Assembly (NCBI GenBank): GCA_050248615.1
Contig: JBFWSA010000014.1
Coordinates: 1 to 52,370, forward strand
From: Simkaniaceae bacterium
GTDB taxonomy: Bacteria > Chlamydiota > Chlamydiia > Chlamydiales > Simkaniaceae
Length of the DNA: 52,370 bases
Direction of reading: 5' to 3'
The notes under the pieces were generated by a model. It saw only the letters and a program-made list of their open reading frames with translations, made no database searches and had not been told where the DNA came from. Shown one piece after another: positions 38,536 to 40,830 of this stretch. A program made the position numbers and the translations under genes. Within the stretch, counting starts at the first letter, position 1. Every line of letters starts with the position of its first letter.

Positions 38536-40830
38536 TTATTCTTCTGGTCGCATGATGGGGAAGTAAACTACATCGCGGATCGAAAAGGCATTGGTGAATA
38601 GCATCGTCAGGCGATCAATCCCAATGCCGAGTCCCCCTGTTGGGGGCATCCCTTGACAGATGGCTTCGATAAATTCTTCATCCATGGGACTCGCTTCTAG
38701 ATCTCCACCCTCCCGCTTTTTATTTTGCTCTTCGAGAAGTTCTCTTTGAAGTTCGGGATCATTCAGCTCTGAATAGGCATTACAGAATTCATATCCTAAG
38801 ATAAAGGTTTCAAAGCGCTCAACAAGGCGTTCTTTGCGGAGTTTAGGATCGCGGTGGAGTTTGCATAGGGGAGTGGTTTCGATGGGGTGATCGATGATGT
38901 GATGGGGCTGAATGAGATGGTGTTCGGCAAACTCTTCGAAAAGAAAGGCGATAAGTTTTCCGCGGCTTGCGGCACCGAGGACATCAGGCTCGATTTTCCC
39001 TTCCAATTTGCGGCGCATATCTCCATCGGATAAAGTGTCTGGATCGAAACCTCCATAAGCTTGGGTGGCCTCTTTCATGGTCATCCGCTTCCAGGGAGTT
39101 TTCAGGTCGATGAGATGGGTATTCCCTTGTTTATCTTGCCGCATGCCGATTTCTGTTGTCCCATAGAGCTCCTTAGCAAGGTAAGCAAAGAGGTTCTCTG
39201 TAAAGACCATCACATCGTTATAATCCCAGTAGGCTGCATACGATTCTAACATGGTAAATTCGGGATTATGGGTCCGATCGATCCCTTCATTGCGGTAGAC
39301 CTTTCCGATTTCAAAAACGCGCGACAGCCCTCCCACGATGAGTTTTTTTAGAGAAATTTCAATGGCAATCCGAAGGTACATTTTTTGACTGAGGGCGTTG
39401 AGCTCGGAAATGAAAGGGCGGGCTTCAGCCCCGCCATAGATGTTTTGTAAAACAGGGGTTTCCACTTCCATGTAGCCAGCCTCTTCATAATAACGGCGGA
39501 TTTTGGAGACGAGGAGGCTACGCGTTTTGAGACGCTCAACCGATTCAGGGTTGGTAATCAGATCGAGCCATCTTTTCCGGTAACGGGTTCCTTTATCGGT
39601 AAGCCCGCTATGTTTATCGGGTAAGGGGAGGAGCGTTTTACAAAGCAGGGAGACTTCCTTAACATAGAGGGTGAGTTCTCCCTTTTGGGTACGGAAGAGA
39701 TGTCCTTCTATGCCAATGATATCCCCTAAATCGAGTTTTTTTTCGATGAATTTTAGAGGGGATTCGTCTTTGGGTAGACCCGTTACTTGGGTGTGATCGC
39801 GGTTAAACATGACCTGCAGACGTCCCGTTTCATCTTGGATATGGGCGAAAGCGTTTTTCCCCATAGCGCGAAAAAGAACCATCCGGCCGGCAATCCGCGC
39901 AAAATCGGTTTTTCCTACTTCCGCTTCTTCACTTGTGCCAATGGCACTCCCTTCAAATTTATCTTGAAGGGCACGTATCTGATGGGTGGGTTCATATTTA
40001 TGAGGATACGGATCCATTCCCATTTCCCGGATCTCTTTGAGCTTTTGTTTACGGGTTTTAAACGATTCATGGTGGTGGTAGTCAGGCTCAGGAATTTCGA
40101 CTTCAAAGGTGCGGTTACTTAACTTTGACTCTTCGGAAACGTGGGGAATTTCTGGATCGAGGTAGTAAAGCTCAGCTTCTCCTCCACAGTATTTACGAAT
40201 CAGCTCAGAGAGCTCTTTCAAAGCTTTGACGATTTCTGCAGGACGGGTGTTTTCCAGGCCTTCAATGACGAGAGAAATGTTTTGACTCTCTGCGGTGATT
40301 TTTGTTTTGTCACTTTCGCGCCAGTTCCATGCTTTACAAAGGACTTCTACATCATCTCGATAGATGATTTCTCCCACTTTTGCGGTCTCTTGCTCTCGCG
40401 ATCCCAAAGTGACAAAAGGTTCGGTTCCCTGGGCAACCGCTAAACGAATAGATCCTTTGACTTGATCCAAGTCATCGGCTCCAGCGGGGAGGCTATATTT
40501 CACAGAGATCAGATTATAAAGATTGACTACGGGATTGATGTTGGGGAGTCCCTTATCTTGAATCACGCGGCGTAAGAGTGCTTCTACGGAACACCGATAG
40601 GAGGCCGGCTTGTACCCAAACGCTTTATAAGCCTCTCTCCAGTCGAGAATTTTGGGGATCTGTCCGAGATCTTTCCCTTCATACTCTTTCTTCACCCGGA
40701 GGAGGGTACTATCTACGAGTTTCTGGATTTCGGAGTGTTCCCCTGTATTTTTCACCCCTTTAACAATCACAACTCCCACTTTTAAGTGGGGATACTTTTC
40801 CAAAACGCTGGGTTCAATATAAAAATGCAT
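38536..40830 (-). CDS. lysS: Class II lysyl-tRNA synthetase with N-terminal B3/4 domain fusion
   Basis: Residues ~250-764 carry an OB fold, YRKRWLDLI, GGAEARPF, YRNEGIDRTHNPEFT and GMPPTGGLGIGIDRL; residues 1-~225 carry B3/4 motifs SVEALLRR, INPVVNLYN and WNWRES. Confidence 0.95.
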   Translation of the reverse strand: MHFYIEPSVLEKYPHLKVGVVIVKGVKNTGEHSEIQKLVDSTLLRVKKEYEGKDLGQIPKILDWREAYKAFGYKPASYRCSVEALLRRVIQDKGLPNINPVVNLYNLISVKYSLPAGADDLDQVKGSIRLAVAQGTEPFVTLGSREQETAKVGEIIYRDDVEVLCKAWNWRESDKTKITAESQNISLVIEGLENTRPAEIVKALKELSELIRKYCGGEAELYYLDPEIPHVSEESKLSNRTFEVEIPEPDYHHHESFKTRKQKLKEIREMGMDPYPHKYEPTHQIRALQDKFEGSAIGTSEEAEVGKTDFARIAGRMVLFRAMGKNAFAHIQDETGRLQVMFNRDHTQVTGLPKDESPLKFIEKKLDLGDIIGIEGHLFRTQKGELTLYVKEVSLLCKTLLPLPDKHSGLTDKGTRYRKRWLDLITNPESVERLKTRSLLVSKIRRYYEEAGYMEVETPVLQNIYGGAEARPFISELNALSQKMYLRIAIEISLKKLIVGGLSRVFEIGKVYRNEGIDRTHNPEFTMLESYAAYWDYNDVMVFTENLFAYLAKELYGTTEIGMRQDKQGNTHLIDLKTPWKRMTMKEATQAYGGFDPDTLSDGDMRRKLEGKIEPDVLGAASRGKLIAFLFEEFAEHHLIQPHHIIDHPIETTPLCKLHRDPKLRKERLVERFETFILGYEFCNAYSELNDPELQRELLEEQNKKREGGDLEASPMDEEFIEAICQGMPPTGGLGIGIDRLTMLFTNAFSIRDVVYFPIMRPEE

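Follow-up and report, generated by a model that had tools for sequence, protein, structure and literature searches.

A CtdA-like domain joined in frame to the lysyl-tRNA synthetase of a Simkaniaceae bacterium: a candidate tethered post-transfer editing module

Introduction

Why would a housekeeping class II lysyl-tRNA synthetase (LysRS) carry a domain related to aminoacyl-tRNA deacylases at its N-terminus? The question is raised by a gene in a 52,370-nt stretch of DNA (the window) from a Simkaniaceae bacterium (assembly GCA_050248615.1, contig JBFWSA010000014.1). The domain resembles the canavanyl-tRNA(Arg) deacylase CtdA, and the known CtdAs put right an error made by arginyl-tRNA synthetase (ArgRS). 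Both LysRS and ArgRS are listed among the synthetases without an editing domain in the consulted sections of two reviews (PMC11415595, PMC7373986). The premise of a sequence-only reading of the window, namely that class II LysRS normally has no separate editing domain, agrees with these sections, which list none. As described in the consulted portions of PMC7373986 and PMC5370406, ordinary LysRS edits pre-transfer only, by cyclising homocysteine, homoserine and ornithine. The E. coli class II enzyme mischarges tRNA-Lys with Arg, Thr, Met and other amino acids, and is unable to deacylate Arg-, Thr- or Met-tRNA-Lys (consulted portion of PMC5370406); thialysine and dehydrolysine are further substrates that it charges and that then enter translation (consulted portion of PMC1989143). 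Mischarged tRNA-Lys is indeed a recognised problem, since members of the INS family correct mistakes of LysRS, among others (consulted section of PMC11415595). For ArgRS, no editing domain had been described at the time of the discovery of CtdA (PMC10018355).

Results

One reading frame contains a CtdA-like domain and a complete LysRS

The sequence-only reading had described a single uninterrupted ORF of 764 aa, and the ORF listing and the translation agree with this (Table 1). The six motif strings that it had quoted from the N-terminus are likewise all present at their places in the translation: WREAYKAFG (64-72), YRCSVEALLRRV (78-89), LPNINPVVNLYNLIS (95-109), PAGADDLD (115-122), GEIIYRDD (153-160) and CKAWNWRES (165-173).

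Table 1. Features of the fusion gene and its upstream region (window positions)
Feature	Residues	Position	Strand	Basis or remark
Whole gene, CtdA-like/LysRS fusion		38536..40830	-	764 aa, ATG start, stop codon at 38536-38538
CtdA-like B3/4 aminoacyl-tRNA deacylase domain (predicted)	1-228	40147..40830	-	Pfam, phmmer, AlphaFold, Foldseek
Linker	229-246	40093..40146	-	Low pLDDT; terminates at ATT codon of I246 (40093-40095)
LysRS N-terminal helix and OB-fold anticodon-binding domain	247-400	39631..40092	-	Pfam, lysS_bact
Class II catalytic domain of LysRS	401-764	38539..39630	-	Pfam tRNA-synt_2
N106 codon		40513..40515	-	Counterpart of essential N105 of S. enterica CtdA; alignment to 9mkl
C165 codon		40336..40338	-	Counterpart of C166, tuning CtdA activity and specificity; alignment, PMC12449066
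Promoter-like hexamer pair (consensus match only)		40859..40887	-	TTCTCA-17-TATGAT upstream of ATG

The C-terminal part had been taken for a complete class II LysRS, and this was borne out by a full-length match to the NCBIfam model lysS_bact (TIGR00499; residues 255-763, model positions 4-495 of 496, 560.7 bits against a curated cut-off of 427.6 bits), and by Pfam matches to the OB-fold (tRNA_anti-codon, PF01336, 312-396) and class II catalytic domains (tRNA-synt_2, PF00152, 413-760, E 9.8e-85). The catalytic domain is the best-conserved part of the fused proteins, with a mean majority-residue share per column of 0.82. In this genome, which is 96% complete, the protein is the sole LysRS above the family cut-off and no class I LysRS was found. 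The fused enzyme would therefore be the one that lysylates tRNA-Lys, and every Lys-tRNA would have to pass through it.

As for the N-terminus, where a B3/4 signature had been proposed, Pfam B3_4 matches residues 64-216 (E 6.3e-28, 98 bits; cut-off 29.3 bits). The more specific proposal of a CtdA-like nature also held up, CtdA being placed far ahead of the beta subunit of phenylalanyl-tRNA synthetase (PheRS) by both sequence and fold. With phmmer, the domain matched the solved CtdAs with E 1.1e-34 (9f7e) and 1e-28 (9mkl), and PheRS beta with E 0.027. A domain-only AlphaFold model (pLDDT 92.7) gave in Foldseek an E of 2e-23 and TM scores of 0.81/0.85 over 228 columns with 9f7e_A and TM scores of 0.82/0.88 with 9mkl (226-228 columns across both CtdAs), against 0.5-0.6 (best 0.59) with PheRS beta. 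A PheT-type identity was considered and ruled out by the pheT_bact score of 30.2 bits (cut-off 402.65) and the phmmer E of 0.027; the genome's own pheT is located elsewhere and has a far stronger B3_4 match. The domain matches of the fused protein are far beyond chance.

Upstream of the ATG we noted a promoter-like hexamer pair with 9/12 consensus matches and a TG ahead of the second hexamer. It is to be regarded as weak, because a promoter and terminator scan of the region returned sites no more numerous than in shuffled sequence. No lysine riboswitch, T-box or other RNA element was found in 38000-41600 (Rfam, E <= 0.1).

The junction is genuine and the linker is conserved

The sequence-only reading had raised the possibility that the fusion was an assembly artefact absent from relatives. 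The same fused architecture was, however, present in 67 of 69 matches, and the junction (~40080-40160) was recovered in a 2256-nt contig from an independent freshwater run, which spans 38400-40451 with one difference. A wastewater contig covers 39665-40139 with zero differences. The junction is not an assembly artefact.

In a full-length AlphaFold model (pTM 0.50) the N-domain was good, the pLDDT dropped to 56-71 in the linker, and the catalytic core was poorly predicted, with residues 403-530 under 50. A complex prediction from two alignments, one of the N-domain (1-235) and one of the LysRS core (246-764), scored 0.02, a value that speaks neither for nor against docking. The span from residue 216 to residue 249 is exactly 33 residues long in 53 of the 57 N-terminally fused proteins, and contains a partly conserved ENRxIPxEIPE stretch.

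A different view of the locus would be that the real product is a 519-aa LysRS translated from an internal start, the upstream 245 codons forming a separate or decaying gene. One public gene call of 519 aa does begin at the I246 codon, with that residue read as M, and unfused relatives begin at the same PEPDYHxHE motif. ATT is, however, a rare start codon, and neither this genome nor any of the 33 fused genomes described below has a stop between the two parts. The fixed length and conserved motif of the linker also argue against an internal start, as does the N-domain, which is not decaying, because it is highly conserved. Lastly, two RNA libraries yielded contigs that map to the linker and the N-domain (40081-40229, 40092-40269, 40338-40584 and 40439-40731), with the reservation that such libraries can hold DNA. 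An internal start thus strikes us as hardly credible, and we consider that the gene product is probably one chain, in which a housekeeping class II LysRS bears an N-terminally tethered and putatively catalytically competent CtdA-type deacylase.

The pocket residues of CtdA are largely retained

We compared the domain with the six pocket positions named for S. enterica CtdA (N105, G116, E118, C166, Q173 and I189; PMC12449066). Three are identical in the chlamydial protein (N106, G117 and C165), while E118 is replaced by D119, Q173 by E172 and I189 by V188. Judged from the alignment, these three changes appear conservative, and C. perfringens CtdA also has Glu at the Q173 position (PMC12449066). 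The CtdA mutant N105A is inactive (PMC12449066). Across 57 aligned fused proteins, which are otherwise just 62-82% identical, the columns are kept as N in 56, G in 53, C or S in 54 (C 48, S 6, T 2 and Y 1 at C165) and E or Q in 53, compared with a mean majority-residue share of 0.69 over the rest of the N-domain. From the aligned residues, the deacylase pocket appears to be preserved in the fused protein.

These data bear on the idea that the domain hydrolyses nothing and is an extra tRNA-binding or dimer-stabilising module, like non-catalytic domains appended to other synthetases. Domains of the B3/4 fold that have no editing activity do exist. Moreover, CtdA is dimeric (PMC12449066), as are class II synthetases. 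Yet the positions whose change inactivates CtdA (N105, G116, C166 and Q173) belong to the best-conserved ones in the 57 proteins, and a substrate pocket would not be maintained for purely structural reasons, so that we find a non-catalytic module quite improbable.

No pocket signature separating all LysRS-linked from ArgRS-linked domains was found, only a partial trend at position 119, which is D in the chlamydial forms and in two class I LysRS forms, E in the other class II C-terminal forms, Y in Aggregatilineales, and E or Q in non-chlamydial N-terminal forms (Q in the two Babeliales proteins).

CtdA-like domains have been joined to LysRS repeatedly

When the occurrence of the architecture was surveyed, as the sequence-only reading had envisaged, the CtdA-like/LysRS fusion was found in 33 of 400 sampled Chlamydiota genomes, with the domain at the N-terminus in 26 and at the C-terminus in 7. 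The covalent link to LysRS is conserved and transmitted as a unit, and from this recurrence, together with the fixed linker length, we conclude that the fusion is under selection. One 17-row clade of the domain tree (SH-aLRT 99) holds chlamydial N-terminal fusions, C-terminal fusions and free-standing genes. Elsewhere, CtdA-like domains occur as N- and as C-terminal fusions with either class of LysRS. The partners among the 46 long or odd matches scanned were ArgRS (23), LysRS (7) and TyrRS (4), and no other synthetase partner was found among them. A single origin of the LysRS-linked domains was rejected (AU test, p-AU 0.00018, lnL difference 226). Fusion of this domain family to LysRS has taken place independently on several occasions, and the chlamydial N-terminal form appears, on these trees, to be of separate origin. 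Close relatives of the validated CtdAs, represented by plasmid proteins from Pantoea (E 2e-98 to 9f7e) and Sinorhizobium (E 3e-87), formed in IQ-TREE a clade of their own (SH-aLRT 98) that excluded every fused form sampled; in a FastTree run they lay nearer the fused forms, with weak support.

Close relatives, whose LysRS cores are 75-85% identical to this one, have lost the domain on at least three occasions, and it is therefore not essential. Because close relatives have dropped it, we regard the module as accessory and useful only under certain conditions of amino-acid supply. Comparison of fused and unfused LysRS cores for compensating changes showed just three differing columns (247, 259 and 415), none of them striking. 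In nine free-standing chlamydial CtdA-like genes examined, no lysS was present within ~4 kb, and there is thus no operon-level link.

With regard to lysine supply, a true lysA occurs in just 1 of 39 genomes of the family, so that these bacteria are probably reliant on imported lysine. It is plausible that such import would skew the ratio of lysine to its competitors. The presence of lysA as a correlate of the fusion was discarded, the gene being lacking in fused and unfused genomes alike.

Discussion

A tethered deacylase would supply a step that LysRS otherwise lacks

We favour the view that the domain is a tethered editing module which acts after transfer and frees tRNA-Lys of a wrong basic aminoacyl group, and consider this reasonably likely. 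In such a scheme, LysRS would transfer the amino acid to tRNA-Lys, after which the tethered deacylase would sample the 3' end, either within the same dimer or immediately upon release. A wrong, positively charged aminoacyl group would be hydrolysed and Lys-tRNA-Lys spared, the outcome being a post-transfer editing step. The sequence-only reading had left it between cis-editing of tRNA-Lys and action in trans on another mischarged tRNA, and a functional reading of this kind is strengthened by the finding that the domain family has been fused repeatedly and independently to both LysRS classes.

As for the substrate, we favour guanidino-type groups (arginine or canavanine) on tRNA-Lys, followed by thialysine or oxalysine and then by other non-cognate amino acids. 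In docking, both canavanine and arginine fit S. enterica CtdA, which deacylates Arg-tRNA weakly (PMC12449066). Of the lysine analogues put forward in the sequence-only reading, thialysine and oxalysine stay among the favoured candidates, while ornithine has become less likely: according to the consulted portion of the Jakubowski review (PMC5370406), it is not mischarged onto tRNA-Lys by E. coli LysRS but removed before transfer.

The fused domain might instead be a canavanyl-tRNA(Arg) deacylase of the ordinary kind, working in trans on tRNA-Arg, the fusion to LysRS merely securing constitutive co-expression. The nearest characterised proteins are indeed deacylases of canavanyl-tRNA-Arg, and the key pocket residues are kept or conservatively changed, including the Glu shared with C. 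perfringens CtdA. Also, a fusion is unnecessary for catalysis, because the characterised CtdAs act in trans without their synthetase (PMC10018355). Action on tRNA-Arg would, however, leave unexplained why fusions of the domain arose repeatedly with each of the two unrelated LysRS classes, and at either terminus, and lineages that fuse it to a synthetase for tRNA-Arg use ArgRS (23 clusters). Furthermore, the close relatives of validated CtdAs form their own clade apart from the sampled fused forms, and canavanine is described as a legume product (PMC10018355), yet landfill, wastewater, sludge and freshwater are the labels of the runs that contain matching DNA. We therefore consider this explanation unlikely, and return to editing of tRNA-Lys as the preferred one.

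More generally, CtdA-type domains could be a plug-in proofreading module for synthetases of basic amino acids, which would give LysRS true post-transfer editing (of Arg/canavanine-type groups or of thia- and oxa-lysine) in Chlamydiota and, independently, elsewhere, including class I LysRS; to this broader proposal we give about an even chance.

A pocket-intact domain on the sole LysRS, together with the independent fusions to both classes, would imply that mischarged tRNA-Lys has a real cost in fitness under some circumstances, and an entire group of intracellular bacteria has this conserved domain on its only LysRS. If the broader proposal is true, it would amount to the first demonstration of an editing domain in LysRS and, by extension, in ArgRS, and the free-standing members of the family in Chlamydiota would edit tRNA-Lys in trans and not detoxify canavanine. 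The fused protein also opens the question of a role of the CtdA family beyond canavanine detoxification, which was left open by the CtdA authors (PMC12449066). No description of a B3/4-LysRS fusion, or of the CtdA-like fusions to ArgRS and TyrRS, was found in the consulted portions of the literature on LysRS editing, CtdA, B3/4 domains and chlamydial LysRS, and the CtdA papers (PMC10018355, PMC12449066, PMC12268091) mention neither fusions nor LysRS. In the consulted part of the PMC12449066 supplement, no Lys- or Arg-tRNA ligase was present among the 16 tRNA ligase rows listed. Six entries in the same part of that supplement contain the stem 'chlamyd', and at least two of these are the fungus Pochonia chlamydosporia.

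Comparison with known systems

Residues 247-764 match the ordinary bacterial class II LysRS of the E. coli LysS/LysU type end to end (lysS_bact, PRK00484), with the same OB anticodon-binding and class II catalytic domains, but the fused protein carries a 246-residue N-terminal addition whereas ordinary LysRS is without a separate editing domain. The CtdAs of P. canavaninivorans (9f7e) and S. enterica (9mkl) have the same fold as this addition, including the CtdA-specific helical insert, with ~30% of residues identical across the full domain and roughly half of those in 61-204. Unlike the chlamydial domain, which is covalently joined in frame to LysRS, CtdA is free-standing; the chlamydial pocket, where N119 is also changed to D, is more acidic; and the chlamydial hosts are intracellular with no evident legume link. 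The B3/4 domain of PheRS beta belongs to the same superfamily (Pfam B3_4) but is a distant relative, and the PheRS-specific pocket residues are not common to CtdA-type proteins (PMC12449066). It nevertheless provides a synthetase with a built-in site for post-transfer editing, the same working mode that we propose for the LysRS-fused domain. Deacylases of the INS superfamily, in contrast, have an unrelated fold and are free-standing in the characterised cases. Further parallels are the fusions to ArgRS, class I LysRS, class II LysRS (C-terminal) and TyrRS elsewhere, in which a CtdA-type module of the same family has been appended to different partners, at different ends and in different lineages, such as Babeliales and Aggregatilineales.

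A single gene for LysRS and a CtdA-like domain

The sequence-only reading had proposed one uninterrupted 764-aa ORF with a complete class II LysRS behind a B3/4 domain. Indeed, ORF listing and translation returned a single unbroken frame, the quoted motif strings all lay in the translation where they had been placed, and Pfam matched B3_4 in the N-terminal part, followed by the OB and catalytic domains (see the table). Residues 255-763 also matched the bacterial LysRS equivalog of NCBIfam at 560.7 bits, above the cut-off of 427.6. In the source genome (2.04 Mb, 69 contigs, 96% complete), the fused gene is the only LysRS above cut-off, class I LysRS was not found, and there are only two B3_4 domains, those of pheT and of the fused LysRS.

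Positions of domains, loci and repeats
Feature	Position or loci	Details
Fused gene	window 38536..40830, minus strand	764 codons, ATG start
B3_4	residues 64-216	Pfam, E 6.3e-28
OB anticodon-binding domain	residues 312-396	Pfam
Class II D/K/N catalytic domain	residues 413-760	Pfam
C-terminally fused loci	L032-L037	genomes G355, G168, G331, G098, G066, G246
Second free-standing B3/4 subfamily	L049-L054	genomes G332, G305, G206, G050, G233, G252
Repeat 1	window 40905-41046	~142 nt; further copies at 17495-17637, 9595-9671
Repeat 2	window 41229-41393	~164 nt

The concern that the fusion might be an assembly artefact was removed by relatives that share the architecture and by independent DNA contigs that bridge the junction, one from a freshwater run spanning 38400-40451 with 1 difference and one from a wastewater run spanning 39665-40139 with 0 differences. 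Contigs from two RNA libraries also matched the linker and N-domain, which speaks for presence and is not proof of transcription. The connector (residues 216 to 249) is exactly 33 residues long in 53 of 57 proteins and contains a conserved ENRxIPxEIPE stretch. A public gene call of the same protein (P0069, 519 aa) omits the domain and starts at the ATT of I246 (40093-40095); because the frame is open, the relatives' N-termini align from residue 1 and the connector length is fixed, this start is regarded as an annotation shortcut. That translation begins internally, leaving the domain untranslated with LysRS, is contradicted by the open connector of fixed length, and we consider it very improbable. 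Given the P0069 call, the fusion in the source genome may go unnoticed under automated annotation.

Between priA and lysS lies a 600-bp spacer with two distinct dispersed repeats, both imperfectly palindromic; each has some 20 or more copies genome-wide at 80-96% identity. Metagenome contigs stack and break at these repeats (depth up to 125, versus ~7 in the gene), which look like MITE- or REP-type elements.

Distribution and history in Chlamydiota

Residues 1-300 had 69 matches among 5.8 billion proteins, 67 of them combining B3_4 with LysRS domains, with source names Chlamydiales, Chlamydiia, Simkaniaceae, Simkania sp. and Neptunochlamydia. The domain shares a reading frame with the LysRS core, or lies immediately next to it, in 33 of 400 sampled Chlamydiota genomes, a count that excludes two further cases on contig fragments. 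The fusion is N-terminal in 26 of these (16 in the window's family, five in one genus of a second family, three in a third and two in a fourth) and C-terminal in seven, confined to one further genus of another chlamydial family, with the domain at residues 525-758 in the proteins P0062-P0065. The C-terminal form is a second, independent fusion event inside Chlamydiota. Free-standing domain genes occur in ~20 other genomes; three copies, in genomes G131 and G139, are 46-52% identical to the window's domain, and the remainder form a second subfamily, 30-36% identical, with another pocket (W96, Y119, W166, K171, D172, F188). No lysS lay within ~4 kb of the free-standing genes at any of nine loci.

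A LysRS-core tree (72 rows, IQ-TREE quick) contained a 29-row clade (SH-aLRT 99) of 21 N-fused and 8 unfused enzymes, joining the window's family with N-fused enzymes of two other families. The second family's other sampled members were placed elsewhere, so the fused gene either is old or has passed from one lineage to another. Nested among the N-fused forms are the unfused clade members (G030, G390/G302 and five in genus g4), whose cores are 75-85% identical to the window's LysRS (tblastn); this nesting implies no fewer than three losses of the domain. C-terminally fused enzymes grouped apart, and two unfused enzymes sit among them. When fused and unfused enzymes were compared, no change in the LysRS core was found that consistently tracks the presence or absence of the domain. 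With losses among close relatives and no accompanying core change, the module is beneficial and yet can be dispensed with, as is free CtdA with its patchy distribution. In one close relative that lacks the domain (G054:C4:36745-40752; L040/L044), a 391-aa frame, 87% identical to the query, represents a second, partial LysRS copy and lies ~1.3 kb away from the full-length gene.

Identity of the domain and its pocket

In a search of all solved chains with residues 1-245, the chains of the canavanyl-tRNA(Arg) deacylase CtdA, 9f7e (E 1.1e-34) and 9mkl (E 1e-28), were found, versus just E 0.027 for PheRS beta. The domain-only AlphaFold model (pLDDT 92.7) superposed on the two CtdA chains with TM 0.81-0.88 over 226-228 columns and on PheRS beta subunits with only 0.5-0.6, and therefore has the CtdA-specific helices. 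The aminoacyl pocket of CtdA is reported to comprise N105, G116, E118, C166, Q173 and I189, and N105A, G116H/W, C166G and Q173G each inactivate the enzyme (PMC12449066). Alignment to solved CtdA gave N106, G117, D119, C165, E172 and V188 as counterparts. Among the 57 N-fused relatives in the alignment (61 rows, four being C-terminal fusions with gaps in the pocket columns), these residues are kept as N in 56, G in 53, D in 49, C in 48 (plus 6 S), E in 48 (plus 5 Q) and V in 48, above the mean majority-residue share per column of 0.69 for the domain overall. Selection acts on the pocket, not merely on the fold. A non-catalytic, tRNA-binding role for the domain is hard to reconcile with this conservation and seems improbable. 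Three pocket residues of the fused protein are acidic (D119, D120, E172), in place of the E, N and Q of validated CtdAs, and would suit a fully charged side chain; since many ArgRS-linked domains are equally acidic at positions 120 and 172, the acidic pocket is a hint and no signature of LysRS linkage.

Synthetase partners of the wider family

The domain had 3594 matches at E <= 0.001 (259 at E <= 1e-30) among 1.84 billion representative proteins, and 46 long or odd proteins among the best 150 were scanned with Pfam. Half of these (23/46) were ArgRS with an N-terminal CtdA-like domain (clusters P0100, P0104, P0107 and 20 more), P0100 having two in tandem; no editing domain had been described for ArgRS, according to the CtdA discovery paper (PMC10018355). 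The others were three class I LysRS fusions (one N-terminal, two C-terminal; one named Aggregatilineales), four class II LysRS fusions (two N-terminal, one of those named Babeliales, and two C-terminal), four TyrRS fusions (P0200, P0222, P0224, P0234), one fusion each to an amidase and a GNAT acetyltransferase (P0144; P0157), and ten proteins with B3_4 alone. No synthetases other than ArgRS, LysRS and TyrRS were among the 46.

In a domain tree (73 rows, IQ-TREE quick), chlamydial N-fused, C-fused and free-standing domains formed one 17-row clade (SH-aLRT 99), and the remaining LysRS-linked domains were scattered over four or more other positions. The 19 LysRS-linked rows were defined as a group by architecture but after sight of a first tree; constraining them to a single clade cost 226 log-likelihood units (p-AU 0.00018). 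From architecture alone, with two unrelated LysRS classes and two ends, at least four fusion events are needed. A canavanyl-tRNA-Arg deacylase acting in trans and merely hitched to LysRS would agree with the homology and would leave the repeated choice of LysRS as partner unexplained; we hold it to be unlikely. Plasmids of Pantoea and Sinorhizobium encode close relatives of validated CtdA (E 2e-98 and 3e-87 to 9f7e), which formed their own clade (98), apart from every fused form; in an earlier FastTree run their position had been closer to the chlamydial clade, but weakly supported. The second chlamydial free-standing subfamily grouped with the Aggregatilineales class I LysRS-fused domain (10-row clade, SH-aLRT 98; inner fork 80).

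Proposed function

The sequences show a complete synthetase joined by a conserved tether to a complete predicted deacylase with its pocket intact, and a domain family that has united with LysRS repeatedly and independently. Editing by class II LysRS is described as pre-transfer only, with homocysteine, homoserine and ornithine cyclised (PMC7373986), and thialysine and dehydrolysine as efficiently charged and translated (PMC1989143). E. coli class II LysRS is reported to load Arg, Thr, Met and other amino acids wrongly onto tRNA-Lys and to be unable to deacylate Arg-, Thr- or Met-tRNA-Lys (PMC5370406). The S. enterica CtdA pocket accommodated canavanine and arginine alike in docking, and the enzyme weakly hydrolysed Arg-tRNA (PMC12449066). 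A pocket tethered to LysRS would meet tRNA-Lys 3' ends only, so that its sole task would be to distinguish lysine from an incorrect basic side chain, which should be less demanding than the distinction between canavanine and arginine; on this ground, our preferred reading is that the domain removes Arg/canavanine-type groups from tRNA-Lys after transfer. Thia- or oxa-lysine would be the second-choice substrate, by analogy to C166 lying near the canavanine oxa atom. Of 39 genomes searched in the window's family, only one had a true lysA, so lysine is probably imported; import would fit a need for protection when lysine is scarce relative to its competitors. Among the 39, lysA status did not differ between fused and unfused genomes. 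The sole lysA-like candidate in the source genome is a sub-threshold 638-aa PLP-decarboxylase-like frame (G000:C24:30421-31302), also seen in G053, G060, G076 and G404.

Comparison with known systems

The words fusion, fused, lysyl and LysRS are absent from the three CtdA papers, no ligase for Lys or Arg is among the 16 'tRNA ligase' rows covered from the supplementary table of PMC12449066, and we found no description of a CtdA-like/LysRS fusion in the open-access and bioRxiv literature searched. The architecture may have been noticed without study, since it is visible in public domain databases. In summary, the fusion is real and conserved: it presents a known deacylase family as a variant in a new setting that has apparently escaped study, and it yields a clear, testable prediction. 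The fused LysRS may be likened to synthetases with a built-in editing domain, such as PheRS, ThrRS and AlaRS. By fold and sequence its N-domain is a B3/4 domain of CtdA type; unlike CtdA, it is fused and not free-standing, it lies outside the validated clade in the IQ-TREE domain tree, and its deacylase role is predicted where the activity of CtdA is measured.
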